From Candidatus Omnitrophota bacterium (GTDB lineage Bacteria; Omnitrophota; Gorgyraeia; Gygaellales; Profunditerraquicolaceae), in the NCBI GenBank assembly GCA_016208765.1, contig JACQXK010000001.1, positions 192,365 to 256,364 on the forward strand: a stretch of DNA of 64,000 nt, read 5' to 3'. Made by a program: the position numbers and the translations under genes. Below the pieces are notes generated by a model that made no database searches, had not been told where the DNA came from, and was given only the letters and a program-made list of their open reading frames with translations. Positions 3,606-54,957 of this stretch are shown piece after piece. Numbering within the stretch: the first letter of the stretch is position 1; every line of letters begins with the position of its first letter.

Positions 3606-4700
3606 ATGAAAAAGATATTTGTTGCATTACTTGTTATCGTAATTATTAATTTCCTTTGTTTTACTCAACTACCATCAGTAAGAGCTGAAGAAGCCAGAAC
3701 ATTTATAGGAACGATTGAATCTTTTAGGCCGGTTATGGGCAGGCCGCCAAAGTGGTATTTTGCCAGGTTTACGGCTGTTAATGATATTGGCGAAAAGAAA
3801 GAATTCTGGATATTGGGAGCTTCCGGTGCCTCTCCGACTTCTGTTACTGATTTTGATGGTAAGCCGATGGATAAACCAGGTTATAATCATAGGCCTCAAG
3901 TGGGTAAAAAAGTAGAAGTAAAGTATTCAACCGCTGGAAACGGACGCAATGAGGCTATTTCGATCCGCTATGTTCCTGCGGATTATGTGCCGCAGGTAAC
4001 AGCACCGGCTGCGCAACCAGGTTTAAATTCAACGTCCTCGGCAATCGCCGTTTCCGAAGCCGGAAATAATATCTTTGTAGGAAAAGTTGTAAAGGGCGGA
4101 GTCACTTTCAGCTTGAAATGTCCTTATAGGTTCGTAATTGTTATTGATAATGGCGAGAAGAAAGATGTTTGGATACCAAGGGATAATATGCGCATTACCG
4201 AGCTTAACGGTAATTCAGTATATGGCGCACCTCCGAGAGCAGGTAGAAAAATGGAGATCAAATATTTGACCGGGGACAACGGCCAATACGAAGCAGTCTC
4301 TATGCATTATGTTCCTGAGGATTATGTGCAGAAATCCACAACGCCAGTCTTACTAACACAAACCCCAGCCACGACTACGGAGCAGGAAGTAAAATTTCAG
4401 GGTAATGTTTTTGTGGGTAAACTGGAGAAGGCTACGCCGGTTTTTCACCATATTGACAAGTCACAGCCACGATGCAAGCTTTTGGTTGTAGCGGATAATG
4501 GGGAACAAAAACTTTTCTTTGTATCCGGACTTTGTCCGGTTATTGACGCAAGCGGAAAAGACATAAGCCAAACTTGGGGGAATATTGCATCTTTGCTTAA
4601 GAATGGTGAGCGCCTTGAGGTAAAATATTCGGTTATTAGAAATGGAAACTACATAACAAATGGACAGAACGGAGCGGATTCGATTCGTTGCCTGGATTAA
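3606..4700 (+). CDS. Secreted hypothetical protein containing three roughly 110-aa internal repeats.
   Basis: ATG at 3606 gives MKKIFVALLVIVIINFLCFTQLPSVRAEE, a signal peptide. The ORF track starts at TTG 3585, but the ATG sits just after a G9 tract. The three repeat units each end in '(E/V)(V/I)KY.T..NG.YEA.S..YVP.DYV'. Confidence 0.7.
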   Translation: MKKIFVALLVIVIINFLCFTQLPSVRAEEARTFIGTIESFRPVMGRPPKWYFARFTAVNDIGEKKEFWILGASGASPTSVTDFDGKPMDKPGYNHRPQVGKKVEVKYSTAGNGRNEAISIRYVPADYVPQVTAPAAQPGLNSTSSAIAVSEAGNNIFVGKVVKGGVTFSLKCPYRFVIVIDNGEKKDVWIPRDNMRITELNGNSVYGAPPRAGRKMEIKYLTGDNGQYEAVSMHYVPEDYVQKSTTPVLLTQTPATTTEQEVKFQGNVFVGKLEKATPVFHHIDKSQPRCKLLVVADNGEQKLFFVSGLCPVIDASGKDISQTWGNIASLLKNGERLEVKYSVIRNGNYITNGQNGADSIRCLD

Positions 4701-4804
4701 TATGAGCAAGCAAGAAGATAAGAAAAAAGTATTTCTTCCGCTTTGGGCTAACGGATGGTCTAAATACCGCGTGATGATTTTGGGGATTTTAATGAGGATG
4801 AATA

Positions 4805-5521
4805 ATGAGGGCTAAAATGGTTATGGAAAAAATTATTTTTGCCTGGAGCGGCGGTAAAGATAGCGCCATGGCGCTTTATGAATTGAAAAAGAACAGGGAT
4901 TATGAAATATCAGCATTGCTTACTACGATAACAGAAGATTACAGCAGGATAAGCATGCACGGCGTCCGGGAAATTCTTCTTGAGCAACAGGCAGATTCTT
5001 TAGGTCTGCCTTTGGAGAAAATCTATATTACAAAAAAATCATCTAATGAAGAGTATGAAACTAAGATGAGGGATACGTTGATCCGTTATCAAAGTAACGG
5101 TGTTTTCTCTGTAGCTTTCGGTGATATTTTTCTTGAAGACTTAAAGAAATATCGCGAGGGCAATTTGTTAAAAATAGGCATGAAAGGCATTTTTCCTGTC
5201 TGGAAAAGAAATTCTTTTGAGCTCGCTAATACATTTATTGATTTAGGTTTTAAAGCGGTTATTACTTGTATTGATTCAAAAGTTCTTGATAAGGCTTTTG
5301 CCGGCAGGAATTTTGATAAGCAATTTTTATCAGAACTTCCTCCCAATGTTGACCCCTGCGGAGAGAATGGGGAATTTCATTCATTTGTGTACGAGGGCCC
5401 AATATTTTCAAAGCGAATATTATATGAAAAGGGTGAGGTTGTTTTAAGAGATAACCGGTATTATTTCTGTGATTTGATGCCAGTTGAGAATAAATTGGCT
5501 GTTGGTGCAAACTTGCCCTGA
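4805..5521 (+). CDS. PP-loop ATP pyrophosphatase of the Dph6 / MJ0570-like (diphthine-ammonia-ligase-like) family.
   Basis: N-terminus …KIIFAWSGGKDSAMALYEL contains the SGGKDS PP-loop. Its size (about 235 aa) fits the MJ0570 family. The true start may be Met-5 or Met-7. Confidence 0.65.
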   Translation: MRAKMVMEKIIFAWSGGKDSAMALYELKKNRDYEISALLTTITEDYSRISMHGVREILLEQQADSLGLPLEKIYITKKSSNEEYETKMRDTLIRYQSNGVFSVAFGDIFLEDLKKYREGNLLKIGMKGIFPVWKRNSFELANTFIDLGFKAVITCIDSKVLDKAFAGRNFDKQFLSELPPNVDPCGENGEFHSFVYEGPIFSKRILYEKGEVVLRDNRYYFCDLMPVENKLAVGANLP

Positions 5522-5673
5522 GCCTGCCTAAGATGCGGGGGGACATAATACTTAATTAGAAATAAGTACTGTCTCCGGAATTCCTTGCGTCTATTGACCG
5601 TTGGTGCAAGTACAACGTGATGATTTTGGGGATATTGGAGCGGACAAATACTTTGGAATGAAGGGGTTAAGCT

Positions 5674-6672
5674 ATGAAAAATAAGATTACTGAAATACCG
5701 GTAAGGGGTGAAATTGCCATTTATCAGACTAAAGACAAGAAAGTCCAGCTGGAAGTTAAGCTGGAGCAGGAAATGGTTTGGCTTTCACAAGAGCAGATAG
5801 CGAATCTTTTCAAAACTGAACGAAGCGTTATTACTAAGCATCTCGGCAATATCTTCTGTTCCAATGAATTAGGAGAGAAAAGCAATGTGCATTTTTTGCA
5901 CATTCCCTTTTCGGATAAACCGGTAAAATTTTACAATCTTGATGTGATAATTTCAGTTGGGTACAGGGTTAATTCGTCTCGTGCTACACAGTTTCGTATC
6001 TGGGCTACAAATGTCCTGAAGCGGCATTTGATTGATGGTTATACCATTAATGAGAAACGCTTGAAACAGCAGACCCAAAAACTTGAAGCTTTACAGAAAG
6101 CAGTAAAGCTAATAAGCAGTATGAAGGATCGCAAGCAGCTTGAATATAAGGAAGCCATGGGGCTGCTTGAAGTAATCAGCGATTATAGCTACGCACTTGG
6201 GCTTTTAGATGATTATGATTATAAGCGGCTAAAGATAACCAAAACTTCAAAAGAAGAAAAGTTTATTTTAAGCTACGAATTGGCAATAGAAGCTGTAAAT
6301 AAGCTCAAAGACAGAATTGGTAGTTCAGATCTTTTTGGCACAGAGCGTGATAAATCATTTAAGAGTTCGGTATCTTCAATCTATCAAACGTTTGACAGGA
6401 AAGATTTATATCCAAGCATTGAAGAGAAGGCAGCTAATTTGCTTTATTTCATTGTTAAAAATCATTCTTTTGTTGATGGGAACAAACGAATCGCTGCTTC
6501 AATATTTTTGTGGTTCTTAGAGAATAATGGTATTCTGTATAAAGAAGACGGCTCAAAGCGCATCGCCGATAATGCATTAGTCGCTTTGACTCTGATGATT
6601 GCAGAAAGTAAGCCCAGTGAGCGAGATATTATCGTTACGCTGGTTGTGAATTTGATAAACAGGAATAATTAA
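5674..6672 (+). CDS. RhuM-family protein with a C-terminal Doc-type Fic domain.
   Basis: The N-terminal region matches the RhuM virulence-protein family (…VISVGYRVNSSRATQFRIWATNVLKRHLIDGY…). The C-terminus has HSFVDGNKRIAA, i.e. the Doc-type HxFx(D/N)(A/G)NKR motif rather than the AMPylating GNGR motif. Confidence 0.75.
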   Translation: MKNKITEIPVRGEIAIYQTKDKKVQLEVKLEQEMVWLSQEQIANLFKTERSVITKHLGNIFCSNELGEKSNVHFLHIPFSDKPVKFYNLDVIISVGYRVNSSRATQFRIWATNVLKRHLIDGYTINEKRLKQQTQKLEALQKAVKLISSMKDRKQLEYKEAMGLLEVISDYSYALGLLDDYDYKRLKITKTSKEEKFILSYELAIEAVNKLKDRIGSSDLFGTERDKSFKSSVSSIYQTFDRKDLYPSIEEKAANLLYFIVKNHSFVDGNKRIAASIFLWFLENNGILYKEDGSKRIADNALVALTLMIAESKPSERDIIVTLVVNLINRNN

Positions 6673-6821
6673 AAACAAGTTTTATTAAGGTTATGAGGGA
6701 TAGAATTTTTAATTAGACATAAGTATTGTTTCCCCGGAATTATCAATGCGTTACCATACAAAAATAATTATATTTGTTCCGTAACTTTAATAATTACAGG
6801 TAGTTTAGGAAAGCGTCATAT

Positions 6822-7964
6822 ATGCTGAAAACAGGTTTTTTATTGGGTGCTGGATTTTCTAAATATGGAGGAATGCCACTATCTTGTGATTTTGTTATAC
6901 AAGCCCAAAACATACTGGATAATAGGCTTGAAAGATCATATATACCTTCGCGTGAGCCTAAAAACTTGCAGAGTCTTGTTAGATTTAAAGATTTCGTTTC
7001 AGATGAGAAAGGAAGAGAGATTAACCATATTGAAGAAATCATTAAGTTGTCTGATCAATACCGGCTTACTAAAGATTGGGACAATATTGATAAAGAAGTT
7101 AGAGATGCAATTTATGAGATATTGATTGCAGCGCCTTTTATCATGTATTTAAAAGATAAAAATGAGTTATATAAAATGTTTGATATTTATTTAAGATTTT
7201 TGTTAATTGTTGCAGATTCCGAAGCTATGATTGCAACATTGAATTATGATCCTCTCCTGGAGCTTTTGTTACACACAGCAGCAATGTCAATAACACCGAA
7301 TAGCCAGCTATTTCATAAATTCGCTGAAATTGTTAGTTTTAATTATGGAATTGGAGATTTTTCATACCGACCTTTATGGGGTTCTTCTTCTAATATAGAT
7401 AGAGTAGATATATTATATTTTAAATTGCATGGAGCTACTAATTGGGAAGGTTGTGATCAACACGGATTAACAGAGGTTTGCGATCCACTAAAAACTAGGG
7501 CAATTGGGCGCTGTAGAGAGTGCAACATGCCAGCAAAACCATTTATTATTTATCCAGTTGAGGAAAAGAAATTAAATAGTCAGTTATCAGCATTGTGGGA
7601 TACCGCTTTTGGAGCATTAATGCAAGTGGAACAGATTGTTATAATTGGATGCCGATTCAATGAAACAGACAAAGATATATTTAAAAATGTTAACGAATTA
7701 ATTAGTAACAATAAAAGACTTGTAATTGTTGATCCGCAAGGCAGGCAAATTAAAGAAAGAATTGCCAAGCTAAATGAAAATGTTGTATACATCGATAATG
7801 GGAATGGCGAAGGAGCGGTATTTGAAGATATTTTCTGTGATGGTAAAACAGTAGCAAACGAAAATTTTCAAGAAATCACTAACTTAAGATTACGTAAAGA
7901 TGTGCAATATTTTCGAAACGAACAACCTTCTATGCCTTTTTTTGAAGAACCAGTCGCAACATGA
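6822..7964 (+). CDS. Standalone SIR2-like (SIR2_2/PF13289-type) domain protein; candidate NADase defence effector.
   Basis: N-terminal 'FLLGAGFS' glycine-rich motif typical of the SIR2_2 family, with a downstream 'YFKLHGATNW' histidine motif. 380 aa with no other recognisable domain. Confidence 0.65.
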   Translation: MLKTGFLLGAGFSKYGGMPLSCDFVIQAQNILDNRLERSYIPSREPKNLQSLVRFKDFVSDEKGREINHIEEIIKLSDQYRLTKDWDNIDKEVRDAIYEILIAAPFIMYLKDKNELYKMFDIYLRFLLIVADSEAMIATLNYDPLLELLLHTAAMSITPNSQLFHKFAEIVSFNYGIGDFSYRPLWGSSSNIDRVDILYFKLHGATNWEGCDQHGLTEVCDPLKTRAIGRCRECNMPAKPFIIYPVEEKKLNSQLSALWDTAFGALMQVEQIVIIGCRFNETDKDIFKNVNELISNNKRLVIVDPQGRQIKERIAKLNENVVYIDNGNGEGAVFEDIFCDGKTVANENFQEITNLRLRKDVQYFRNEQPSMPFFEEPVAT

Positions 7965-8203
7965 GCAGTTATCTTAATTGTATTGGTTAGATTGACCAGA
8001 CGGATATGTAGAGTTAGAGGTTTGTTAGTTATTAGATAATAATAAGTTATGAAAAATAAATATAGTATATACATGCGTACCTTTGGATGGCCGTTGGTTA
8101 CAGTGGCTAGGGATGGCACTGGATGTGTTAAAGAGGGTAAATGGCTTGGAGTGAAAGGGTTGCGGGAAAACAAGTCTGAAAACGAAAATCTTATTAATGT
8201 TGT

Positions 8204-8209
8204 ATAATG
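8204..8209 (+). promoter_or_regulatory. Extended -10 element (TGtTATAAT) upstream of the giant NTPase gene, followed by a (GTAAT)x3 micro-repeat.
   Basis: TG at 8201-8202 and TATAAT at 8204-8209; gtaatgtaatgtaatg lies immediately downstream. Assigned by pattern only. Confidence 0.35.
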
Positions 8210-8248
8210 TAATGTAATGTTGACCAGGGAAAATTAAACAAACAATAA

Positions 8249-11200
8249 TTGATAGCTATGCAAGAAGTAAATTGGAACAACTTTAAAGCAAAGTTTAACG
8301 GTAAAGAGCAAAAATCTTTCGAGTGGTTTTGCTATCTCTTGTTTTGTAAAGAATTCAAGAAGAACACCGGAATATCCAGGTATAAAAACCAAGCAGGGAT
8401 AGAAGCCGAGCCTATTGAACATAATGGTCAAATGATAGGGTTTCAGGTGAAATTCTATGAAACAAGGATTAGTGAGAATAAAGACGACATAAAAAAGTCT
8501 ATTGAAACGGCAAAGAGAAAGAATGGCAACCTTAACAAAATCATATTTTATATAAATCAGGAATTCTCAGAAAGTAGCAAAAAAGATAAGAAAGACCCCG
8601 CATACAAAATCGACATAGAAAATTATGCTAAGTTTCTTGGCGTGGAAATAGATTGGAGAAGCAGAAGCTTTTTTGACTCTTCATTTGTCTGTCAGGACAA
8701 TGCCGTAATAGCACAACACTTTTTTGACTTAGGCAAGAGCGCGATTGATTTCTTAAATGAGTTAACTCAGCATACCGAAGCTATCCTAGCGGCAATAAAT
8801 TCAAAAATAAACCTCAGAAATAATGAAATAAAAATAGATACGGCACAGAATATAAAAGTGCTACAAGATGTTCTGAATACTTCTCCCATGGCTATTTTAA
8901 GTGGAGAGGCAGGGGTAGGAAAAACCGCTCTCATCAAAGATTTTTATGACTCAAGCAAAGACAAGGCTCCTTTTTACATCTTTAAAGCTGCCGAATTCTG
9001 CATACCCAACATAAATCAACTTTTCGCCAATTACGGATCATTTACCCTGTCAGATTTCATGAGAGAACACCAAGATTTCCAAGAAAAATACATAGTAATC
9101 GATTCTGCTGAAAAGTTATCTGACATTGAATATAAGGAAGTTTTTCAGGAATTTTTATCCACCCTGCAAATTAACAAATGGAAAGTCATATTTACAACAA
9201 GACATAGCTACTTGGACGATTTAAGATTTCAGTTTATTGAGGTTTACCATGTCCGGTGTCAGCCAGTAAATATCGAAAATCTTACCTCGGCACAACTTGT
9301 CGAGATTTCAAAAAAATATGGTTTTGATCTGCCAAGGAATGACAGGTTGCTTGAGCTTTTGCGAACACCTTTCTATTTAAATGAATATCTACAAAATTAT
9401 GATAGTTTAGGAAACGCAATAAGTTTTTCTGATTTTAAAAATTTGTTGTGGAACAAGCAGATATCCAAAACTTCATATCAGAAGGATAACATACATATAA
9501 AACGGGAAAAATGCTTCCTGGAGATTGCTCATAAGAGGGCTGCTGAGGGCAGCTTTTTTGTAAAGGCTGATGGGTGTGATGATGAAGTTTTACGGGCTCT
9601 TGAGAACGATGAAATTATAAAATATAACTCCAATGCGGGCGGTTACTTTATTACACATGACATTTATGAAGAGTGGGCATTGGATAACATAATTGAAAGA
9701 ACGTTTTTGAATTCAAAAGATTACAGGGATTTCTTAAGGGGGATAGGAAGTTCTTTGCCAGTTCGTCGAGCTTTTCGGAATTGGCTCTCAGAAAAACTAT
9801 ATAATAATGGAAATGAAGTAAAAGCATTTATTGAATTTGCAATCAATGATGATACGATTGAGAGCTATTGGAAGGACGAAATCTACGTATCAATCTTGCT
9901 ATCCGATTACGCAGAGGTCTTTTTTGACATATTCAAAGACAAGCTTTTAGAAAATAACCAAACTCTCCTGGTGAAAATTATTTTTTTGCTGAGAATCGGT
10001 TGTAAAGAGATTGATGAAGACTTGCTTAATATATTTGGTATTCAAAAAACGGCGTGGAGCGCATTGAAAACTATCTTCACGAAACCAAAAGGCCGTGGAT
10101 GGAAATGCACCATCAATTTTATACATGAGCATAAAGGCGCATTGGGATTACAAAGAATGAATATAATCCTCCCCATGCTTGATGATTGGAATAACAAAAA
10201 TAAAGGGGGCGAAACTACAAAGCAAGCGAGCCAGATAGCGTTATATTATTATAACGAACTCACAAAACAACAATATTATCATATCTCTGACCGCAAAGAG
10301 GGGCAATTAATCAGAGTCATTTTGCAAGGCTCATCAGAAATTAAGGATGAGTTGAAAACTATCTTAGATGAAGTTATCTCTAACAAAGCGGTTGATTACA
10401 GGGATAGGTACTACGTTCTTATTAAGCCAATACTAACATCACTTACGGATTCCTTCGAGGTGGTTAAAGCTCTGCCGAATTATGTAATAAGATTAGCAGA
10501 TATTTTTTGGTTCCAAAATCCCAATGAATTAGATGAGGATTATAGATATTCAAGAAGAATGGACATGGAGGATTACTTTTGTATTTCATCAAGGCATAAC
10601 GACTTTTTACCAGCAAGTGCATTCCAAACACCTATATTCCAGCTTTTAAAGATATCTCCCCAAGAGACAACGGACTTTATTTTATCGTTTACCAACAAGA
10701 CGGTTGAATGCTATGCGAAATCTAAGCTTGATGGTGAAATAGAACAGGTAGACGTTTTTGTCGATAATAATAAAGCGATAAAGCAATATATAAGCAACAG
10801 GCTTTGGTGCATGTACCGTGGAACCCAAGTTTCTCCATACCTTCTTGAGTCTATACATATGGCTCTCGAAAAATGGCTTCTGGACGTCGCCAAATCAGCA
10901 TCAAAAGAGGTTATAGAAAGCCGGTGCCTGTATCTTATAAAAAACTCTAAATCTGCTTCAATAACCGCAGTTGTTTCAAGCGTGGTTTTAGCTCAACCGT
11001 CAAAGCTTTTCAATGTTGCAAAAATACTTTTCCAAACAAAACAATTCTTCCTTTACGACACGGCAAGGATGATGCTTGACCAATCACACAAAGGTCAATT
11101 ATTAGGGTTGAGAAATCTCTTTCCTCGTAACTACGATAATGAAATCTATGAAGATGAAAGAATAAAAGCTTGTGATGATAGCCACAGAAAATACGCATTA

Positions 11201-13009
11201 GAGCATTTAGCTCTTAATTATCAGTTATTCAGGACAGAAGAAGAAAGAGAGGATGAGGTTAAAGATAGACAAGAAATCATATGGGCCATATTCGATAAAT
11301 ATTATGCAGAGCTCCCAGACAAATCAACAGAAACGGAATCCGACAAGACATGGAAGCTATATTTGGCAAGAATGGATAGAAGAAAGATGAGTCCAGAAAT
11401 TGAGAAGACAGATGAAGGCACTTTCATTAAATTCAATCCCGAAATCGACGCCGATTTAAAAAAACATAGTGAAGATGCTCTGCAAGAAATTTCCGAGAAG
11501 ATGAAGTATACAGGTTTACGGCTATGGGCAGATAGCAGATTCAGAGGAGAAGAAGAGACCTACAAAAAATATCCTCAGTATGAAACCGAACCAAAACGTG
11601 TAATTACAGAAGCAAAGGAAATATTTGAAGGGCTAAAGACCACAAAAAGGGAAGAATTTTCCCTGTTTAACCGTTCAATACCCGCATATGCTTGCTCTGT
11701 TTTAATGCGTGATTTTTTTGGCAAACTTGATTCAGATGAAAAAGAATTCTGCAAAGAAGTAATTATTGGGTATGCAGCTATACCGTTAATGACAGAACAG
11801 TATATGTACCAGATATCCGATGGCACGGAAGCCGCAATTGCTCTTTTACCCAATCTTCTGGAGCATTTTCAAAAAGATAAGAAAGATATCAAAATGTTGT
11901 TGTTTAGATTGCTGCTCATCCCGTCCCGAGAAATATCAACATTTGTTGCAAGAGGCATTTTGCATAAGTTATGGAAAATCAGTTTTAATGATGCAAACTC
12001 TATGTTTCTAGGATATCTTTTGCTTTCACCCAAATATTATGCGCTTATCGATGAAATACGAGAAGAAAATTACAAAAGAAAAAATCACGGCGATTTAAGA
12101 ACACAGGTTTCTAAAGCATTTGAAGAAAAGTATAGAAAGGAACTTGAGAGGGTTAACAAGAACGGCATTTCTTATGATGAATTAGATGGCTTAGAAAAGA
12201 TAGATTTAGAAATTCTAAAATCGGCGTTTGAGTTATTGCCTTTGGAAACAACTGACAACGATCATAAGAAATTCTTGAGCGCAATCTTTCCCATTTTCGC
12301 AACGAAAATCTTACAGGATGATCGTGAGGACAGAATTGACTATACCCTAAGGCATAGATTCTTAGAAAAATTTGCATATTTTACCTTAAACCTCCCGAAA
12401 AAAGAAATAATGATATATTTGCGACCTTTTATCGATAATTTTCACAACTCAAGAGAAATGTCTGAATTCTTCCAAGAATTTATATTTGTAGAAGATAGGC
12501 TGTCCAAATATGACGAATTCTGGACAATATGGAATGCTTTTTATGAGAAGGTGGCAGATTTATGTAAGAGCAAGAGCAGTTATTATGCAAAAGAAGTCAT
12601 AAGTAGCTATCTCTTAGCAGGGATACCCTGGAATGAAAAAGCAAAAGAATGGCATACGCTAAAAGAACGAGAAAAGATATTCTATAAAAAGGTAGCTGAG
12701 GAAATGGGGCAGCACCCAGCGGTGTTGTATTCCATTTCCAAGGTTCTAAACGGCATCGGAAGCAATTTTATAGAAGACGGATTAACCTGGATAAGCTATA
12801 TCTTAGAAAACAACAAACAGCTAAGCTCGGAAGAATTAGAAACAAATACCATTTTTTACATAGAGACCTTTCTTCGACGATATATTCTAAATAATCGTCT
12901 ACATATTAGGAGGTCACTATTGATTAAGAAGCAACTTATCGTTGTTTTAAATTTCTTGATAGGAAGAGGTTCGATCGTAGGGTATTTATTACGAGATGAT
13001 ATTTTATAA
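8249..13009 (+). CDS. Giant STAND-like P-loop NTPase (1586 aa) with an N-terminal Mrr-like PD-(D/E)xK nuclease-fold domain and a long helical C-terminus; resembles the Avs (antiviral STAND) architecture.
   Basis: N-terminus FEWFCYLLFCKEF…GIEAEP…QMIGFQVKFYE follows the Mrr_cat pattern (FE.L…GID…I.QCK.Y). Walker A is [12 protein letters not shown] near aa 220 and Walker B is KYIVIDSAEKL near aa 280. More than 1200 aa of non-repetitive, helix-rich sequence follows. Confidence 0.6.
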   Translation: MIAMQEVNWNNFKAKFNGKEQKSFEWFCYLLFCKEFKKNTGISRYKNQAGIEAEPIEHNGQMIGFQVKFYETRISENKDDIKKSIETAKRKNGNLNKIIFYINQEFSESSKKDKKDPAYKIDIENYAKFLGVEIDWRSRSFFDSSFVCQDNAVIAQHFFDLGKSAIDFLNELTQHTEAILAAINSKINLRNNEIKIDTAQNIKVLQDVLNTSPMAILSGEAGVGKTALIKDFYDSSKDKAPFYIFKAAEFCIPNINQLFANYGSFTLSDFMREHQDFQEKYIVIDSAEKLSDIEYKEVFQEFLSTLQINKWKVIFTTRHSYLDDLRFQFIEVYHVRCQPVNIENLTSAQLVEISKKYGFDLPRNDRLLELLRTPFYLNEYLQNYDSLGNAISFSDFKNLLWNKQISKTSYQKDNIHIKREKCFLEIAHKRAAEGSFFVKADGCDDEVLRALENDEIIKYNSNAGGYFITHDIYEEWALDNIIERTFLNSKDYRDFLRGIGSSLPVRRAFRNWLSEKLYNNGNEVKAFIEFAINDDTIESYWKDEIYVSILLSDYAEVFFDIFKDKLLENNQTLLVKIIFLLRIGCKEIDEDLLNIFGIQKTAWSALKTIFTKPKGRGWKCTINFIHEHKGALGLQRMNIILPMLDDWNNKNKGGETTKQASQIALYYYNELTKQQYYHISDRKEGQLIRVILQGSSEIKDELKTILDEVISNKAVDYRDRYYVLIKPILTSLTDSFEVVKALPNYVIRLADIFWFQNPNELDEDYRYSRRMDMEDYFCISSRHNDFLPASAFQTPIFQLLKISPQETTDFILSFTNKTVECYAKSKLDGEIEQVDVFVDNNKAIKQYISNRLWCMYRGTQVSPYLLESIHMALEKWLLDVAKSASKEVIESRCLYLIKNSKSASITAVVSSVVLAQPSKLFNVAKILFQTKQFFLYDTARMMLDQSHKGQLLGLRNLFPRNYDNEIYEDERIKACDDSHRKYALEHLALNYQLFRTEEEREDEVKDRQEIIWAIFDKYYAELPDKSTETESDKTWKLYLARMDRRKMSPEIEKTDEGTFIKFNPEIDADLKKHSEDALQEISEKMKYTGLRLWADSRFRGEEETYKKYPQYETEPKRVITEAKEIFEGLKTTKREEFSLFNRSIPAYACSVLMRDFFGKLDSDEKEFCKEVIIGYAAIPLMTEQYMYQISDGTEAAIALLPNLLEHFQKDKKDIKMLLFRLLLIPSREISTFVARGILHKLWKISFNDANSMFLGYLLLSPKYYALIDEIREENYKRKNHGDLRTQVSKAFEEKYRKELERVNKNGISYDELDGLEKIDLEILKSAFELLPLETTDNDHKKFLSAIFPIFATKILQDDREDRIDYTLRHRFLEKFAYFTLNLPKKEIMIYLRPFIDNFHNSREMSEFFQEFIFVEDRLSKYDEFWTIWNAFYEKVADLCKSKSSYYAKEVISSYLLAGIPWNEKAKEWHTLKEREKIFYKKVAEEMGQHPAVLYSISKVLNGIGSNFIEDGLTWISYILENNKQLSSEELETNTIFYIETFLRRYILNNRLHIRRSLLIKKQLIVVLNFLIGRGSIVGYLLRDDIL

Positions 13010-13032
13010 GAAGGATAGCAAGAGGAGGATAT

Positions 13033-13695
13033 ATGCCGTATAAATTATCTACTGAACAAATTCGTGAATTAGTTAACCAGCCAGAAACCGGAATGGGTTA
13101 TCAGTATGTCGAAGCCTCTATGAGTAATTCTTCTATCTTGAAAGGAGTTGTGCTTAATTCAGAAGTTTTTATCCCTGAAGAAAAAATCGAAAAGATTATG
13201 GGTAAGCGATTTATAACCTACTCAGCAGTTCTTAATGAAGCAGAAAGTCCCGGATACATTAGAAAAATCAACGTCATTGGGCGAGATCGATTGCATCTCG
13301 GAGAAACAAAGTATTTTGCAAAATCTGCTGGAGTTCCTGCTTCGCAGGCCGTTATTTCTTTAACAGAAAAAAATCAAATTTTTAAAAGGTTCTCGCCTTA
13401 TAGAAATGATCATCGTATTAATGAAGATGGTAGTTTAAAATTAGGTGCATATGCCACTACAGAAGCCGATGCACGTAATGTTAGAACAGGAATAGATGCA
13501 ACAAATAGGTATGCATTACTGAGTGATGAGCCGGCAATATATGTTTTTACCATTCAACCGCCTGAAAAAACTTCTGTTCGCGTTGGAACAGTTGAACCTG
13601 CAAATGGCAAGCCTGGTGGCGGTGTTGAGGTTTTATTTGAAAACGGCTCTCCCAAAAACACTGTGACTGGACCCAACATAATTCCAGCAAATTAA
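13033..13695 (+). CDS. Hypothetical protein (220 aa) with an N-terminal 'PETGMGYQ' domain.
   Basis: Starts 24 bp after the giant NTPase stop, with GAGGAGG as RBS. Its N-terminal roughly 55 aa are paralogous to the next ORF. No recognised family. Confidence 0.6.
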   Translation: MPYKLSTEQIRELVNQPETGMGYQYVEASMSNSSILKGVVLNSEVFIPEEKIEKIMGKRFITYSAVLNEAESPGYIRKINVIGRDRLHLGETKYFAKSAGVPASQAVISLTEKNQIFKRFSPYRNDHRINEDGSLKLGAYATTEADARNVRTGIDATNRYALLSDEPAIYVFTIQPPEKTSVRVGTVEPANGKPGGGVEVLFENGSPKNTVTGPNIIPAN

Positions 13696-13914
13696 ATGAA
13701 ACTAAAATTAAATAAATACTGGACGGAGCACCTTCTTAAATACCCTGAAACAGGGATGGGGTATCAACGGGTTGATGTCATATTGAAATCTGGCCAGGTA
13801 ATCAAAAATATTGTTGTTTTGAACGCCGAAGACTTGGTGCTTTCTGACGAATATAAAGATTTAAGATTAGATGAAATTAAGGATTTACATGTTCTGATTA
13901 AAGGGAAAAGATAA
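13696..13914 (+). CDS. Hypothetical small protein (72 aa); a standalone paralog of the N-terminal 'PETGMGYQ' domain of the upstream gene.
   Basis: Starts 1 nt after the upstream stop. The alignment KYPETGMGYQRVDVILKSGQVIKNIVVLNAEDLV versus NQPETGMGYQYVEASMSNSSILKGVVLNSEVFI shows clear homology. Confidence 0.55.
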   Translation: MKLKLNKYWTEHLLKYPETGMGYQRVDVILKSGQVIKNIVVLNAEDLVLSDEYKDLRLDEIKDLHVLIKGKR

Positions 13915-14043
13915 AAATCGGCATAAGTTCTCAAGCGGAGGTGTTTATGAACGGTTTTAAAAAAGGATCTGGTTCTTTGTGATAAGGATGGCAAAGTTAT
14001 CAAAGTTTATCCATATGGCAGTGAAGAGCAGCTTAGATATGAA

Positions 14044-14361
14044 ATGGTTCTGGAAATTCTATTTGAGGCAGACAAGACAGCTCTAGAGAAACTCATAGAG
14101 AAAAGAGAGCATAAAGAACAGGTAATAGATAGTCAGATAGAAGAATGCGATAAGAAGGTTTTTCATAAATGTACCAAACGATCAGCCAAAAGATACAATA
14201 TGACCCAAACAGCAAGAATTTTAGGAGTTCATCGCGAGACATTATATTACTGGATCAAGAAAGGTTGGCTTAAGCCGAAGCGAGACTACAGGAATTATCC
14301 GGTTTTTACAGTTTTAGACATAGAAGAGCTGATAAAGTGGAAAGATACAATAAAATGTTGA
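14044..14361 (+). CDS. Small HTH DNA-binding protein (Xis/AlpA/MerR-like HTH_17) with a coiled N-terminal half.
   Basis: C-terminal MTQTARILGVHRETLYYWIKKGWLKPKR is a typical excisionase/MerR-type helix-turn-helix. No integrase gene is nearby. Confidence 0.6.
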   Translation: MVLEILFEADKTALEKLIEKREHKEQVIDSQIEECDKKVFHKCTKRSAKRYNMTQTARILGVHRETLYYWIKKGWLKPKRDYRNYPVFTVLDIEELIKWKDTIKC

Positions 14362-14500
14362 AATTATCTGGAAACCGCAGAAATAGATTTAACAGATTGA
14401 TTGACAAAGAGTTAACGGTATTTATGCATCTCGTACATTCATCGGTTTAGACAGTTTTATGCAAACCTCAAAACAAGGATATTAAAGTACACAACTAACT

Positions 14501-15724
14501 ATGAAACAAGAAGTTACATCAAAAAAAGTGTTCATTCGCACGCTGGGCTGTCAAATGAACGTCCGGGATTCGGAGGTAATTGGAGGGTTGCTTGCGAGAG
14601 CAGGGTATGAGATTACCGACGATGAACAGCAGGCGGATATTGTGATTTTTAATACCTGTTCTGTGCGTCAGATGGCTGAAGATAGGGTATGGAGCGCGGT
14701 GGGAAATGCTGTAAATAGAGAAAAGCATAGGGACAGTCCCCAAAAAGCGGGGACAGTCCCTATAATTGGTATTACAGGCTGTATGGCAAATAATTACCGG
14801 GAGGCAATTTTTGAGAAAGCGCCGGCTGTTGATTTTGTGGTCGGCACTGCGGATATTGGAAAGCTACCGGAAATCATAAAAGAAATCCAAAAACATAAAG
14901 GCAGCCTCAATGAAAAGAAGATTTATGAAACAGACGCAGAATTTCGCGAGGATGAAATTTATCACACTGGATTCAGGCTTGATAAAGAACATGCGTTTGT
15001 GGTAATCTCGGAGGGATGTGAGAATTTTTGTTCTTATTGTGTGGTGCCTTATGTGCGGGGAAAGTTGCGCTCGCGTGATCCTGAGGATATTTTAAAAGAA
15101 ATAAAAGCAGATGTTGATGCCGGGATTTCTAAGATTACTCTTTTGGGCCAGAATGTGAATGCGTATCATTGGGTAGATAAAAACAGGGACAGTCCCCAAA
15201 AACCGGGGACAGTCCCTGTTTTTACTTTTGATTTTGTAAAGCTCCTGACAATGGTTAATAGAATAAGCGGTTTAAAAGAGTTTACTTTTGTTACCTCACA
15301 CCCCAAGGATACATCAATAGAATTATTTAAGGCAATGGCTGAGTTGGATAAATTAAGAAAATACATGCATCTTCCGGTGCAGTCTGGTTCGGATAGGATC
15401 TTAAAAATGATGAATCGCAGGTATACCAGGGAAAATTATTTAAATTTAGCAAAGAGTTATCGTGAGATTGTCAGGGGTGGTGAGCTTACTACTGATATTA
15501 TTGTGGGTTTTCCCGGTGAGACAGAAAAAGATTTTCAGGATACCTTTGATTTGGTAAAAGAAGCGGAGTTTAATGCTGGTTTTATTTTTAAATATTCACC
15601 TCGGCCGCATACTGAGGCTTTAAAATTGCCTGATGATGTGTCAAGAGAGGAAAAAGAAAGGCGCCACGCCTTAATTTTAGAACTGCAGAAGAAAATATCA
15701 AAGAAGCTAAGAAAGAAAATATGA
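14501..15724 (+). CDS. miaB: tRNA-2-methylthio-N6-dimethylallyladenosine synthase (radical SAM methylthiotransferase). It carries two in-frame 11-aa palindromic-element insertions.
   Basis: VFIRTLGCQMN MTTase N-domain, CxxxCxxC radical-SAM cluster (CENFCSYCVVP) and a C-terminal TRAM region. Insertions 'RDSPQKAGTVP' and 'RDSPQKPGTVP' correspond to the DNA elements at 14729-14761 and 15185-15217. Confidence 0.9.
   Translation: MKQEVTSKKVFIRTLGCQMNVRDSEVIGGLLARAGYEITDDEQQADIVIFNTCSVRQMAEDRVWSAVGNAVNREKHRDSPQKAGTVPIIGITGCMANNYREAIFEKAPAVDFVVGTADIGKLPEIIKEIQKHKGSLNEKKIYETDAEFREDEIYHTGFRLDKEHAFVVISEGCENFCSYCVVPYVRGKLRSRDPEDILKEIKADVDAGISKITLLGQNVNAYHWVDKNRDSPQKPGTVPVFTFDFVKLLTMVNRISGLKEFTFVTSHPKDTSIELFKAMAELDKLRKYMHLPVQSGSDRILKMMNRRYTRENYLNLAKSYREIVRGGELTTDIIVGFPGETEKDFQDTFDLVKEAEFNAGFIFKYSPRPHTEALKLPDDVSREEKERRHALILELQKKISKKLRKKI
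14729..14761. repeat. 33-bp palindromic element AGGGACAGTCCCC-AAAAAGC-GGGGACAGTCCCT, inserted in-frame in miaB.
   Basis: Two copies of the near-palindrome GGGACAGTCCC separated by 7 nt. The same element recurs at 15185-15217 and, in reverse orientation, at 32625-32653 and 32828-32856. Confidence 0.85.
15185..15217. repeat. Second copy of the 33-bp palindromic element (AGGGACAGTCCCC-AAAAACC-GGGGACAGTCCCT), in-frame in miaB.
   Basis: Differs from the first copy by one spacer nucleotide. It is flanked by AAAAC/GTTTT, which extends the palindrome. Confidence 0.85.
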
Positions 15725-31746: not shown

Positions 31747-34700
31747 ATGACTAAAAGACTCTCTAAACTAATTGCCTTACTTTTAAGCTTTCTACTGCTA
31801 ATAGAGCAAGCAGGCTTTGCAGCTGGTGGTGCCATAGACCTATCAAGCCAATTCTCTAAGCTTGCCTCAGGCATATCTACTACTCTATCATCTGCTACTA
31901 CAGCTACCTTTCGTCCCATACACCTAAGATACCTGGAGTATCTACCTAAAGATAACAGCTTTAAGCTGCTCTTAGATAAAGGTAGCGTAGATACGTCATT
32001 GCGAGGCGCTTCACAGAGTAGGATAACGAAGCAATCTCAAAACCAGATTGCTTCGTCGCTCGTTTCGCTCGCTCCTCGCAATGACGATTTACACACCTTA
32101 CACCCCATATCGCAAGCTGAACTACAAGACCTCCAATCCACCACCCAAGACCTAATGAACTACTTCTACATAGGCCTCACACTACCTAATGATTCCTTCT
32201 GGGTTAACCTAAGACCTGCCCCGTTGATGACCGAAGGTCAATCTACGGGGACTGACTCACCCAACAACATCATAGACTCCTACCTATCTAAAACAGATAT
32301 AGGCAGAATTCTTCTTGAAGCTGATGTACAGCTAAAGAAAGACACCTCAAGCTACACTAACCCAGCTACTCCTATAGGAAAGCAATACTGGAATAAGCTC
32401 TACAAGAAAGCCTCTGATCTCTTTGGAACAGACCAGATTACTATCCCTACCCTAACAAGACCATGGATAGTTCCAGGAGAGATAATCATAAGAGAAAGTC
32501 TGTCACCTGTTGCCAGTGTTGGACAGGAGACAGGTGACAGGAGACAGGCGACACATCCCTCTGCCTACATCTACAAAGCTACCCTTAAAGTAATGCTTGA
32601 AGAAGACTACTTGAAGGGACTGTCCCCGAAGGGGACTGTCCCTGGTTCAACAGACTACTCCTTCACTGATCCGCGCCTTAAAGAACTCAACTCCTACTCT
32701 ACAGAACTAATCAAAGAACTAATCATCCCCAAACTGACTAAAGAGGTAAACTCCTCTAAAAGATACTCTAAGCTAAGACAGGTATACTACTCTCTAATAC
32801 TTGCTCAATGGTTTAAGTCAAGGCAGAAGGGACTGTCCCCGAAGGGAACTGTCCCTGATTTGATTGACTCTAAAAATCTCTCTAACCTAACCTCTAAAAC
32901 TACTTGGGATAAAGCTACCTACTTCAACCAATACCAACAATCCTTCACTAAAGGAGAATACAATACCAAGGAAACAGTCTATACACCTTCTGGACAGGTG
33001 ATCAGGAGTTATATGAGTGGAGGGATTACCTTGATGCAAGGGAGTTTTCCTATTCAGCAAGGGGCTACTTTTGAAAGCCAAGCCGGAAGCCCGATTAAAG
33101 TAGTCCCTGCCAACAGCCCTATTCCAGAAACTCTAAAAAATATCGCAGTAGAAATTAGTTGTTCGGTTTTAAATTCAGACAATTCTACAGTACAGTTAAT
33201 TCCAGAAGTATCATCTGAGAAAATGTATACGCCAGCCAGTTCTTCAGTAGTAAATCACGAAACTAGCGTAGGGCAACTTGTGCTTTTAGAAAAAAGAGAA
33301 TTCCGCTGGCTTCCGGAAGATATTACTAAAGTTGAACAACTGATTCCTGAATTGAAGAAATTTAGCCGAGGCGCAGAGGGTGTTGTGAAGCAGGAGGTAG
33401 CAATCTCACTTTTAGCGGGGCTGATTAGAAAGGAAAACTCAAAATCAATCGCAGCTTTTGAGGATTTAGCTGGACAGATAAAAGAATTTATTGCTCCGAA
33501 ACAAAGGCTTAGCTTAAAGTATGTATCGCTGAAGATTATAAATGCCGCAGCGCAAAATGGAAATCCGGTGGCATTAAAGCTAATCAAGGAATCAACAAGT
33601 GATTTAATAAAAACAATTATTGCGATTGAGCAAAAAGGAGATGTTTATGAAGGGCTTCAAGATATGGTGTTGGATGAGATGCTGGCGTTGTTGATTAGAG
33701 GCGAAAATAACGCATTATTAGAAATAGCAACAGCTTTATCCCAAGGATTAAGGGAAAATCTTCCATCAAGCCAGGATATAAATGAGATCAAGGGAATTCG
33801 TCAGCTCTTTAAACAAGCTCTCAATATGTCAGGTCTTAAGGTAATATTTAAGCTCCGTGAGATCGCAGCAATCCGCGCAACCAATAGTCTCATTCAGGCA
33901 TTGGAGCTTGATACGGAAGACATAATTTACGGTTACTGCGAAGAGCTAAATAAGAAGATGGTGCAGGAAGCAATTGAAAAAGGAGAGCTTCCTCCCGGCT
34001 ATTCTACTAAAAAATATACAGATTCGGCGGATCAGCATCAAAAGGATATCGTAGTAATATTTAATGATAATCAGTCTTTAGGCAGATCAGCCGACAAATT
34101 ACAATTACCTTATTACATTTTTAAATACGGGCTGCCAGAACCATTACCGCAGGAAATTGTAGCTAGAATGCGGCAAGAGATGAATATAGGAAAGCGCAAA
34201 GTGATTGTCGCCGGGTCAGTTGATCGGCAAGAAATAGGCGTTTTAATGGCTGCTTATAATAGTTTATACCGCAATCTCCCTGTAGAACAGCGTCCGTTAT
34301 TAGTTTTGGCTCCTCGGGATATAATCGATTTAGATGATGTGGATTTAAGTCAGCCAGATGCGCCTCTTGTGCTTAAGCAGGGAGAATTGTTAAAATCTTA
34401 TGCCTTAGCCGATGTTTGTATTGTAGGTAGCGATCGTAATATTTTAGAGCCATCAAGCCAGAGAAAATTGGTGTTGTATTTCTCGGGTTATTGGCGCAGC
34501 AATCAGCAAGCGAAAGATATGCTAGTTTCTTCGGGCGGAGCAATAGAGTTTAATCAAGATAATCTCTCTCTAGCGGTAAATAATCCGCAGATAACGCAAG
34601 AATTGGGAGAGAAAGGTTTTAAGATAGTGCAAGAATTCAAAAATAAGATTATTCCACAAACAACGGATATCGCGGCAATCTTCGGATTGTCTTTGTTGAT

Positions 34701-37700
34701 TAAGAAAGTAGCACAGCAACGCGCCGCCTCATCGGTAGTGGAGAAAAAAACAGAAACGTCATCTGGCTTTCTCCAAGGGTCTTCGTCTTCGGCTGTCGCA
34801 ATAAGTGATTTCTACGCAGAACAGTTAAAAACAAAATTTTATATCTCACCGCACCAGCAGGAAGCAATAGATATTTTGGAAAAATACAAAGCGTATTTTA
34901 GCAGTGGCATGAATATTCAGCAGAAGGATGGAGATTGCTTTAGCGGTGGAGTTGTCAATTACGCTCAAGCTTTGATAGGAATTATAGCGGGTTTTATTGT
35001 TGTCAGCCAAGATAAAAAAAGCTTAGTTTTTCTTCAAGCACAAGGCCTTGTTAATCTTCGTGGCATGGTTAACGCTTTAGAGTTTTTGGAAAAAAACAAA
35101 ACTTCCTATGAAAAAAGGGGAATGATTAGGGATGAGGTTGGGGCAATAGGCATAGGCTTTTCATATCAAGAGGCAAAAGCTGGGATAATATCCGGGGTTG
35201 TGATTGTCTCGCTTAAAGGGGATGAATTATTGGTCAAGCAGGGTAAAAACAGGTCAGATGTCCCTTCTTATGTTGTTGTTGATATTTGGGGCCGGCCGAT
35301 GGTTGTTACTATCGGGTTTGCCGATAAATTAATGTCTGCTGCTGTGGCAGGGCGTAGGGCTAAAATTGAAAAAAATCCATCAGAGCGAGAAAGGCTTGCC
35401 TTGGAACAGTCTCAATATCTAAGCGCAGTAATTGATGGTGTTTCTATTGCTCACGTTGGAGATTATTTTGAGGCGAATGGAAATCTTTTCATAGTTAATA
35501 AGGTATATATAGAAACTGATGAAAATGGCAGGTTAGTATCTTTTAATTATTTTGGTGAACAAGCCCCTCTTCAGCAAGGACAATTGAGTTTTGCGTCTCG
35601 GCGGTTGCAATTAAATCATTATTATCAGCCATTATCTCAAAAAGAGGTAGAGGATTTTCTTAAAGCCAGGGAGAATGAAAAACAACAAGCGGATAGAAGG
35701 AATTTACAGGTTAATGTGGAGTCATTAGAAAAGAAAGTTAATAATGGGCTTAACTGGGGAACAGAAGGCAACGTAGCCAAACTCTTGTCTGAATGTGAAA
35801 AAGCAGGGTTTGAAGATTTGCTTGGGCGTATGAGAAATGTCTGCGCAGGGTTTGTTGATATTCGGCGCATCTATGATACATACGGTAAAGATATTAATAA
35901 AATATCTGTTTTATTAGAGCAACTTGCTTTTAGTCGGGCCGAGAAATTAGTTGAAGTTTTATCTCTACGTTCTCAACTGGAAGAAATTATAAAACAAATT
36001 GAGCAAGATAATGGGAATAAAGCAGCTTTAGAATTCTGGGACAAGGAAGCGAAACATTTGCTTGGAAAAGTTAATAAGTTGTTGGGCCGTTTAGAGCAGG
36101 ATGCTTCTTGGCGTAGAAGGCAAGTTGCGCGCAGGCAAGTTCCGATGAAGCGTTTGGGTTCTCTGTATCCCGGAGAAAGAAGGCAGGAAGCAAAAGAGCT
36201 TTTTTGCGATTCGGAAAATCCCGTAACTATTATTATTGGTAGTGGAACGATATTGGAAATAGGTAAAGATAGTTTCGGTTTTTTTGTGGTTCGTGCTAAT
36301 GAGGTAGACAGAGAATTTGGGAGAAGGGTATATATCAGTGAGCAAGGCATAAAGATAGGCAGTGACAGGCAAACGGGTTATTTGCGTATAGGGGATGTAG
36401 TTTCTACTGCTCATAAGGATTCCTTGGTTTCTAGGGAACATCTGGAGATTAGTGTTATTGACCAGCAGACTATTAAATTAGCTGATAAAGGTTCTCTTAA
36501 TGGCACAAGTTATAGAGTTTTTGAGGGGGAGCTGGTTAATCCTGTTTATGAACGTTCGGAGGTTGAAGAATTAGCCTTGGCTGTGGCGGCAAGGTTAGGC
36601 GGCGGGGGATTGTACTTTGATTCAGACAAAAGGAAAATAGGGGAAAACAGGGTTTTTGAAGCCCGCGACAGTCTTGAGGTGATTTTTGGACAGCGGGAAG
36701 GAAATAAAGAAGAAGCATCAGAAAATCTTTTTAAATTCTTCCGCAGATATGGGATTATTTTTATCTATGAAAATAATTTTGCTTTATTAGGCAAAGTTGA
36801 GAGCGTTATTCCTGTTTCCTACCGGTTTTTCAAAAGGGTATTATTGATAAAGCCGTGGTATCAAAAGGGAATGGAAAATATATTGGGATTTTATTCAGGG
36901 CGAATCCAATCACTAACCGAAGGATACGCAATCTTAGGCCAGCGCGGAGAACAGGAAACATCAGAAGAAAATCGTCTTACTGGAGTTCACGAGGCTAATC
37001 ATGGGTTTGATTCAAGCGAAATAATTGAACTTAACAGAATTGGCAAAAGAGTTGCGGTTGATGCCACAATGTTTGAATATACAGCTTATTTGGCGATGTT
37101 GTTGGTAGAGGATGAAAAGGCTGCTTATCATGCCTATATGGAAATGTATGAAGTTTATCAGCAGTATAATTTTAAAGGCAACTATCCAAATCCGAATATT
37201 GCCGCACAATGCAGAATTATCGGCGAGTACCAAGAACAAGGTCATCACGGAGACTCTTTAACTAATGAAACTATTAGGAAGATGGCACAACAATTAAGAA
37301 ATAACTATTATAATGAATTTTTTGGTTTTGTTCCTTCTTATCCTGATGTTTGGCAGGCATTTTCAAAAGCTCAAAACGCCTCCTCGGCTGTGACAGGCGA
37401 CTCCTCGACTAAGCTCGGAGTAAATAGTCGACTGGAGACTGGTGACACTAAAGGCGGTATTGACTTCCGTAGCCTCCCCATCGTCACCCAAGCTGTCTCT
37501 AACTTAGGCTTAACTACTATGAATCAGGAGCTAAGGAATAGATTAATGAATTTTAATCTAAGCTCTGAGCTAAATGAAATAGAGAAACTCACTAATGCAG
37601 GTATTACCCCCTCAACCCAAAGAATTAAAGAATACATTCAAGCAAGCTCCATCTCTATTAATTCCCCAGAAGATACCCAGAAACTACTCTCCTGTATTGC

Positions 37701-37791
37701 AGATATCCTCAGAAAACAGGAAGAAGAATGCTGCCCTACAGATCCTACCTTAAAAGATATTCTTGTAGTATTGGAATCAGGGATAAGTTAA
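31747..37791 (+). CDS. Giant secreted multidomain protein (2014 aa) with a GT30/Kdo-transferase-like region and a C-terminal-proximal FHA domain. It also carries two in-frame palindromic-element insertions.
   Basis: Signal peptide MTKRLSKLIALLLSFLLLIEQAGFA. Region …RKVIVAGSVDRQEIGVLMAAYN…LLVLAPRD…ADVCIVGSDRNILEPSSQ…SSGGAIEF resembles the KdtA C-terminal fold. FHA-like region …YLRIGD…SREHLEI…DKGSLNGT. The insertion peptides are GLSPKGTVP, twice. Confidence 0.6.
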   Translation: MTKRLSKLIALLLSFLLLIEQAGFAAGGAIDLSSQFSKLASGISTTLSSATTATFRPIHLRYLEYLPKDNSFKLLLDKGSVDTSLRGASQSRITKQSQNQIASSLVSLAPRNDDLHTLHPISQAELQDLQSTTQDLMNYFYIGLTLPNDSFWVNLRPAPLMTEGQSTGTDSPNNIIDSYLSKTDIGRILLEADVQLKKDTSSYTNPATPIGKQYWNKLYKKASDLFGTDQITIPTLTRPWIVPGEIIIRESLSPVASVGQETGDRRQATHPSAYIYKATLKVMLEEDYLKGLSPKGTVPGSTDYSFTDPRLKELNSYSTELIKELIIPKLTKEVNSSKRYSKLRQVYYSLILAQWFKSRQKGLSPKGTVPDLIDSKNLSNLTSKTTWDKATYFNQYQQSFTKGEYNTKETVYTPSGQVIRSYMSGGITLMQGSFPIQQGATFESQAGSPIKVVPANSPIPETLKNIAVEISCSVLNSDNSTVQLIPEVSSEKMYTPASSSVVNHETSVGQLVLLEKREFRWLPEDITKVEQLIPELKKFSRGAEGVVKQEVAISLLAGLIRKENSKSIAAFEDLAGQIKEFIAPKQRLSLKYVSLKIINAAAQNGNPVALKLIKESTSDLIKTIIAIEQKGDVYEGLQDMVLDEMLALLIRGENNALLEIATALSQGLRENLPSSQDINEIKGIRQLFKQALNMSGLKVIFKLREIAAIRATNSLIQALELDTEDIIYGYCEELNKKMVQEAIEKGELPPGYSTKKYTDSADQHQKDIVVIFNDNQSLGRSADKLQLPYYIFKYGLPEPLPQEIVARMRQEMNIGKRKVIVAGSVDRQEIGVLMAAYNSLYRNLPVEQRPLLVLAPRDIIDLDDVDLSQPDAPLVLKQGELLKSYALADVCIVGSDRNILEPSSQRKLVLYFSGYWRSNQQAKDMLVSSGGAIEFNQDNLSLAVNNPQITQELGEKGFKIVQEFKNKIIPQTTDIAAIFGLSLLIKKVAQQRAASSVVEKKTETSSGFLQGSSSSAVAISDFYAEQLKTKFYISPHQQEAIDILEKYKAYFSSGMNIQQKDGDCFSGGVVNYAQALIGIIAGFIVVSQDKKSLVFLQAQGLVNLRGMVNALEFLEKNKTSYEKRGMIRDEVGAIGIGFSYQEAKAGIISGVVIVSLKGDELLVKQGKNRSDVPSYVVVDIWGRPMVVTIGFADKLMSAAVAGRRAKIEKNPSERERLALEQSQYLSAVIDGVSIAHVGDYFEANGNLFIVNKVYIETDENGRLVSFNYFGEQAPLQQGQLSFASRRLQLNHYYQPLSQKEVEDFLKARENEKQQADRRNLQVNVESLEKKVNNGLNWGTEGNVAKLLSECEKAGFEDLLGRMRNVCAGFVDIRRIYDTYGKDINKISVLLEQLAFSRAEKLVEVLSLRSQLEEIIKQIEQDNGNKAALEFWDKEAKHLLGKVNKLLGRLEQDASWRRRQVARRQVPMKRLGSLYPGERRQEAKELFCDSENPVTIIIGSGTILEIGKDSFGFFVVRANEVDREFGRRVYISEQGIKIGSDRQTGYLRIGDVVSTAHKDSLVSREHLEISVIDQQTIKLADKGSLNGTSYRVFEGELVNPVYERSEVEELALAVAARLGGGGLYFDSDKRKIGENRVFEARDSLEVIFGQREGNKEEASENLFKFFRRYGIIFIYENNFALLGKVESVIPVSYRFFKRVLLIKPWYQKGMENILGFYSGRIQSLTEGYAILGQRGEQETSEENRLTGVHEANHGFDSSEIIELNRIGKRVAVDATMFEYTAYLAMLLVEDEKAAYHAYMEMYEVYQQYNFKGNYPNPNIAAQCRIIGEYQEQGHHGDSLTNETIRKMAQQLRNNYYNEFFGFVPSYPDVWQAFSKAQNASSAVTGDSSTKLGVNSRLETGDTKGGIDFRSLPIVTQAVSNLGLTTMNQELRNRLMNFNLSSELNEIEKLTNAGITPSTQRIKEYIQASSISINSPEDTQKLLSCIADILRKQEEECCPTDPTLKDILVVLESGIS
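32625..32653. repeat. Palindromic element in reverse orientation (AGGGACTGTCCCC-GAA-GGGGACTGTCCCT), in-frame in the giant gene.
   Basis: Reverse complement of the miaB element core. It encodes GLSPKGTVP. Confidence 0.85.
32828..32856. repeat. Second reverse-orientation palindromic element (AGGGACTGTCCCC-GAAG-GGAACTGTCCCT), in-frame in the giant gene.
   Basis: Same core with one substitution. It encodes GLSPKGTVP. Confidence 0.85.
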
Positions 37792-52248: not shown

Positions 52249-52427
52249 ACTGGTCGGTGTAGGGACAGGTAACTTTGCGCCCCAGCATTGCTGCTGGTTT
52301 GCCTTTTTTCAATAGGTCCAAAGTAAATATAACATATTTGATTTGCTTATTCAAGGCAGAGGCTGGAAAAGTATTGTAATTAATGTAGGGGTATATATAA
52401 TAAGAATAGCCAGAAAAGGGGGGTTAT

Positions 52428-53158: not shown

Positions 53159-53174
53159 GAGATGAAATTGACGA

Positions 53175-54846: not shown

Positions 54847-54957
54847 TATTAGTTTAGGGCTAATAGTATATTGTTTGTTGCAAAATCTTGCGATAGGCGA
54901 TATGCGATAAGCATAATGATTTAAAATAAAAAATCAATTCTAAAGGGAGGTAATACA

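Follow-up and report, generated by a model that had tools for sequence, protein, structure and literature searches.

A full-length Avs4 protein encoded in a variable defence islet of a Candidatus Omnitrophota genome

Introduction

What kind of protein stands behind a GenBank entry of 1583 residues labelled simply “ATP-binding protein” (MBI4706514.1) in a genome of Candidatus Omnitrophota? The question was raised by a sequence-only reading of a 64,000-nucleotide stretch of contig JACQXK010000001.1 (hereafter the window), which had proposed an antiviral STAND protein laid out as effector, NTPase and sensor, with an Mrr-type nuclease at its N-terminus, a STAND NTPase at its centre and a long helical sensor behind. 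This layout is borne out by the analysis described here, and the protein is in fact Avs4 itself. That first reading was thus right in substance, but it overstated the divergence of the protein: the “low apparent sequence identity” that it reported is in reality 46.8% to the solved Escherichia coli protein (EcAvs4) over 1559 aligned residues, and curated profiles pick the protein up without further help.

The Avs proteins form a varied group, in which Avs1-3 sense the phage terminase, Avs7 senses the capsid, and Avs5 has a SIR2 domain. Avs3, with its Cap4-type effector and terminase trigger, differs from Avs4 on both counts. Published work describes Avs4 as a sensor of phage portal proteins that assembles into tetramers and has an Mrr nuclease for its effector (10.64898/2026.08.25.746987; PMC11897194; PMC12803255). 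EcAvs4 has been solved by cryo-EM, in a PDB entry entitled “Avs4 bound to phage PhiV-1 portal” (8DGF), and it is the nearest characterised homologue (47% identical) of the protein discussed here, which belongs to an uncultured Omnitrophota metagenome-assembled genome (MAG) rather than to an enterobacterium.

The reading frame

The + strand from 8249 to 13009 is a single uninterrupted ORF whose mechanical start is a TTG at 8249; an open frame of 1586 codons at about 36% GC cannot be a product of chance. The ATG at 8258 is the start used both by GenBank, whose protein is identical in sequence, and by the gene call on a Logan contig, and all residue numbers given below are counted from it. The features of the locus and of its surroundings are collected in Table 1.

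Every motif quoted in the first reading was found in the translation: FEWFCYLLF (residues 21-29), GIEAEP (47-52) and QMIGFQVKFYE (58-68) in the N-terminal part, and the Walker A and Walker B motifs in the NTPase. The helical C-terminus had been put at “about 1.2 kb”, but the region that follows the NTPase and winged-helix domains measures about 1100 residues, or about 3.3 kb of DNA.

Upstream of the gene, three-frame translation of the intergenic stretch 7965-8257 yields a short ORF only. A promoter-like match, TTGACC-18-AATAAT, lies at 8220-8249, and scans for promoters and terminators returned no more matches than shuffled sequence did; the TTGACC-18-AATAAT match is no evidence of function.

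Table 1. Features of the Avs4 locus and its neighbourhood (window positions, unless a homologous contig is named by its L number).
Feature	Position	Strand	Details
Diphthamide-synthase-like gene	4805-5521		Upstream of Avs4
RhuM + Fic/DOC fusion	5674-6672	+	PADLOC candidate defence family PDC-S23, full length, 438.9 bits; NCBIfam death-on-curing toxin subfamily, 41.7 bits
380-aa protein	6822-7964	+	Directly upstream of Avs4; weak matches: Pfam SIR2_2, 22.2 bits (below cut-off); AbiH, 21.8; PADLOC SIR2, 27 bits
Upstream intergenic stretch	7965-8257	+	No convincing gene; promoter-like consensus matches only
Avs4 coding sequence	8258-13009	+	1583 aa + stop; ATG at 8258; exact protein is GenBank MBI4706514.1
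GenBank locus tags around Avs4			HY761_011xx (exact-sequence look-up)
Mrr-like PD-(D/E)xK nuclease effector domain	8258-8752	+	Residues 1-165
Predicted nuclease catalytic core	8402-8452	+	E49 (8402-8404), Q63 (8444-8446), K65 (8450-8452); aligned with EcAvs4 E49/Q63/K65
STAND NTPase module (nucleotide-binding, helical and winged-helix domains)	8825-9697	+	About residues 190-480
Walker A, GEAGVGKT	8903-8926	+	Residues 216-223; G216, G219, G221 and K222 in 121/121, T223 in 120/121
Walker B, IVIDSAE	9092-9112	+	Residues 279-285; D282 and E285 in 121/121
Alpha-helical sensor domain	9698-13006	+	Residues 481-1583; homologous to the EcAvs4 portal-binding sensor
Two abutting unannotated genes	13033-13695; 13696-13914	+	220 aa; 72 aa
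Small MerR/HTH_17 gene	14044-14361	+	105 aa; PADLOC mad1, 33.8 bits; downstream edge of the islet
HTH_17 leader genes in homologous contigs	L006 214-387; L007 5800-5970; L008 3587-3757; L005 8025-8213		

Membership of the Avs4 family

The protein is a clear, intact and full-length member of the Avs4 (AVAST type 4) family, with all the defining features that are open to computation. Against the NCBIfam equivalog NF041815 (AVAST type 4 anti-phage nuclease Avs4), for which the curated cut-off is 1500 bits, it scores 2127.5 bits with residues 5-1583 aligned to profile positions 1-1579, and against the PADLOC profile PDLC02169 (Avs4) it scores 2087 bits with residues 1-1583 aligned to positions 1-1570; it shows no difference of note from the family that these profiles describe. 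The comparison with Avs profiles that had been proposed as a check therefore came out as full-length Avs4, with the PADLOC profiles for Avs1, Avs2, Avs3 and Avs5 unmatched at E<=1, where Avs4 was accompanied by TRIP13 only, at noise level. Proteins of this kind are already known, and the usual defence-finding pipelines would assign the label by themselves. Since the NF041815 cut-off is passed, the GenBank annotation is out of date; its generic wording probably arose because Pfam gives sub-threshold matches only.

These Pfam matches, for the whole protein, are to AAA_16, AAA_22, nSTAND3 and Mrr_cat_2, and taken by themselves they would be misleading. The NACHT and NB-ARC profiles that had also been put forward for comparison failed to connect, as neither Pfam NACHT (PF05729) nor NB-ARC was matched at E<=1, while nSTAND3 (PF20720), for which matches are precomputed in some Avs4 homologues, reached 15.7 bits, below its cut-off of 27.2. 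For NACHT, NB-ARC, nSTAND3 and Mrr_cat_2 alike, the score gives no membership of the Pfam family, yet the protein has these folds in common with them and its working is STAND-like.

In the PDB, a sequence search of all chains returned a single significant match, chain A of 8DGF (“ATP-binding protein Avs4”, 1508 bits), in which residues 3-1583 are aligned to EcAvs4 3-1587. Once the EcAvs4 sequence had been rebuilt from the PDB-search alignments and realigned, the identity was found to differ little between the modules, at 50.9% for the nuclease, 48.0% for the NTPase, and 47.5% and 44.3% for the two halves of the sensor. The nuclease domain of EcAvs4 has a 17-residue insertion that is absent from the Omnitrophota protein and from the other two homologues in the alignment.

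How widespread is this family? At least 1797 homologues were found at E<=1e-10 in a collection of 5.8 billion proteins. The best 120 of these are 51-93% identical to the query, and nearly all of them have 1552-1614 residues and align with 98-100% of its length; three are shorter (1294-1467 residues, 82-93%). The homologues span many phyla, including Atribacteria, Dehalococcoides, Desulforamulus, Sedimentisphaerales and Binatia, and several of them carry the name Avs4 at NCBI (Dehalococcoides mccartyi, Desulforamulus aeronauticus, Sedimentisphaerales, Binatia). On a contig from a Blastocatellia MAG (L004, 5998-10762), a 54%-identical homologue is broken into a run of at least four ORFs, one after another, with 746, 119, 273 and 438 residues, and is either a pseudogene or the result of assembly frameshift errors.

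The practical value of the assignment is modest. It corrects the label of MBI4706514.1 to Avs4, documents a portal-sensing immune receptor family, intact, in a phylum known here from metagenome assemblies alone, and marks a variable defence hotspot beside miaB that may be worth mining; no new mechanistic question on Avs proteins is opened.

Architecture of the protein

The N-terminal domain is an Mrr-like nuclease. Its model (AF2, residues 1-170, from a 49-sequence alignment) has a pLDDT of 89.5 and adopts the PD-(D/E)xK restriction-endonuclease fold that the first reading had expected; Foldseek matches it to 8dgf_B (E 7.7e-17, TM 0.85). The Pfam profile Mrr_cat_2 (PF13156) is matched at residues 54-136 with 16.5 bits (E 0.008), short of its cut-off of 22, and kinship to this family at the level of the fold is nevertheless supported by the predicted structure. 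The Mrr-type and PD-(D/E)xK nuclease domains of restriction enzymes (LlaBIII of Type ISP, AspBHI, MspJI, the FokI cleavage domain and AF1548) are 5-14% identical to it in sequence; the domain of Avs4, by contrast, belongs to no restriction-modification enzyme but is joined as effector to a STAND sensor.

In an alignment of 121 family sequences, from which all conservation counts are taken, E49 and Q63 are present in every sequence, K65 in 119 and E22 in 118. Residues E49, Q63 and K65 are the predicted catalytic residues, as judged from the PD-(D/E)xK pattern. The first reading had drawn attention to two departures from the Mrr motifs, Asp-to-Glu in GID and QCK-to-QVK; both differences are present, but they are not peculiar to this protein, as GIE...QxK is the family consensus and EcAvs4 itself has GIE...QSK. 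The “substitutions” are not special because they are the norm of the Avs4 family. Only the valine at position 64, within QxK, is rare (alanine in 101 of the 121 sequences, serine in 18, valine in one), and this position is not catalytic.

Behind the nuclease, at the centre of the protein, lies a STAND NTPase whose Walker A and Walker B motifs are both intact. Since the family profile HMM, when run against the PDB, reached 8DGF only, and no other Avs or NLR chain, the STAND relationship was tested by comparison of folds. The model of residues 170-500 (AF2, pLDDT 90.2) gave fold matches among which ORC/Cdc6, DnaA and Clp AAA+ ATPases are interspersed, and both N-terminal modules, as modelled by AF2, can be superposed on 8DGF.

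The rest of the protein is the alpha-helical sensor, which aligns without large gaps to about residues 488-1587 of EcAvs4, at 44-47% identity. Within the family its degree of conservation is close to that of the enzymatic modules, the mean fraction of sequences holding the majority residue being 0.62-0.74 per 100 residues across the 121 sequences. Its least conserved stretch is formed by residues 1201-1300, where identity to EcAvs4 drops to 28%, so that it is not predictable how wide a set of portals would be recognised.

Genomic context

By exact-sequence look-up the window belongs to a contig of 258,789 bp. Around the Avs4 gene the GC content is reduced, at 0.34-0.37 compared with about 0.40, and the islet that holds the gene ends at a small HTH_17 gene, after which come miaB and then miaA. 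The 380-residue protein encoded directly upstream could be a diverged defence protein of the SIR2 type that acts alone, as far as its sequence indicates. No integrase or tRNA was found near the islet, and a search for att-like direct or inverted repeats over about 4600-15000 returned short matches at chance level only.

In contigs with Avs4 proteins 78-87% identical to this one, the neighbours are others, among them an SNF2 helicase accompanied by a methyltransferase and ResIII, a KAP NTPase, DUF5677 and small HTH_17 genes, and the flanking genes differ among L003, L005, L006 and L007/L008. Because the neighbours vary among homologous loci, Avs4 can be regarded as a single-gene system; it forms a cassette of its own within a defence hotspot whose content varies. 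In the window, the site next to miaB-miaA (about 5674-14361) holds the RhuM/Fic fusion, the SIR2-like gene, Avs4 and the 220- and 72-residue pair, and the corresponding site in L009 (4728-10315) and L010 holds genes for DUF4917, TIR_2, a 220(+70)-residue pair, GIY-YIG and an AAA_15/AAA_21 ATPase. In related genomes, too, the miaB-miaA site looks like a variable defence hotspot.

Small HTH_17/MerR-type genes, of the excisionase family, are found about 30 nt upstream of Avs4 or of other defence-like genes in the homologous contigs. Such a gene precedes Avs4 in L006-L008, and it is absent from 7965-8257 in the window. These genes may be regulators of the cassettes.

The two genes directly downstream of Avs4 encode proteins with a common N-terminal domain of about 45 residues containing PETGMGYQ (42% identity, E 3e-9). 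Neither is matched in PADLOC, NCBIfam or PHROGs, and residues 171-204 of the 220-residue protein faintly resemble Pfam TNT (tuberculosis necrotizing toxin, an NADase; 15.2 bits, E 0.03). The pair, which follows Avs4 in its closest relatives only (L001 and L005), could be a toxin or defence cassette of a kind not yet described.

Proposed mechanism and alternatives

As a homologue of EcAvs4, the protein very probably acts as a pattern-recognition receptor made of a single polypeptide. The helical C-terminus of about 1100 residues would bind the portal protein of a tailed phage during infection, and this binding would free the ATP-bound STAND NTPase module to form a tetramer. The tetramer would in turn pair the N-terminal Mrr-like PD-(D/E)xK domains into active nuclease dimers, which would degrade DNA and so abort the infection. 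Judging from the characterised homologue, this sequence of portal trigger, tetramerisation, DNA cleavage and abortive outcome is the most likely one.

Could the sensor nevertheless have drifted, so as to recognise a non-portal phage protein or a portal of a structurally different class, with the NTPase and nuclease output kept? Its identity to EcAvs4 is merely 44-47%, falling to 28% over 1201-1300, the host phylum is far from the Enterobacteria, and in other Avs families recognition can extend to more than one phage protein, as a report on KpAvs2 indicates (PMC11564622). Such a drift is nonetheless quite unlikely in view of a conservation that equals that of the enzymatic modules across the 121 members, of an alignment with EcAvs4 that runs without large insertions or deletions, and of the score against NF041815, whose “equivalog” type is meant to mark a conserved function. 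There is a small but appreciable chance that in the Omnitrophota lineage the sensor has been retuned, with residues 1201-1300 as the most plausible site of change, to the portals of Omnitrophota phages or to another conserved virion protein; if this were true, Avs4 would be a probe with which to identify Omnitrophota phages that are still uncharacterised.

The other alternatives concern the protein's partners and its very nature. The gene is tightly packed with the 220- and 72-residue genes on the same strand, the pair beginning 24 nt past the Avs4 stop, and the order Avs4-220-72/74 recurs in L001, where Avs4 is 100% identical, and in L005 (85%); all of this is what a multi-gene system would look like. 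However, the pair is missing beside homologues that are 82-87% identical (L003, L006, L007/L008), in L009 and L010 it is found without Avs4, adjacent to miaB and in the company of other defence-like genes, and the neighbours of Avs4 vary among the six homologue loci examined. The pair was accordingly rejected as an accessory of Avs4: each occurs without the other, so that they are independent cassettes in one hotspot, and a shared system is very improbable. Finally, a generic GenBank label and Pfam matches to AAA, nSTAND3 and Mrr_cat_2 that stay below threshold are what would be expected of a decayed or non-defence P-loop ATPase merely resembling Avs. This last reading is scarcely credible for an intact ORF of 1583 codons in which every catalytic and NTP-binding residue is kept and which both Avs4 profiles match over its full length, above the curated cut-off; it is refuted by these profiles, by the match to 8DGF and by the conservation of residues. 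The portal-sensing receptor modelled on EcAvs4 remains the preferred account.

Other features of the window

Far downstream of the islet, the window encodes two orphan giant proteins on the + strand, at 31747-37791 (2014 residues) and 39455-41917 (820 residues), neither with a Pfam match at E<=1e-3. Almost all the genes of the window lie on this strand, and among the very few minus-strand features is a c-di-GMP-I riboswitch (52226-52313, 58.4 bits), which overlaps the annotated 5′ end of a 160-residue minus-strand ORF (51766-52248) that has no Pfam match. The genes for tRNA-Met(CAT), tRNA-Val(CAC) and a class A RNase P RNA lie on the + strand at 53085-53248 and 54485-54847, and the presence of these ordinary housekeeping RNAs confirms the chromosomal setting.
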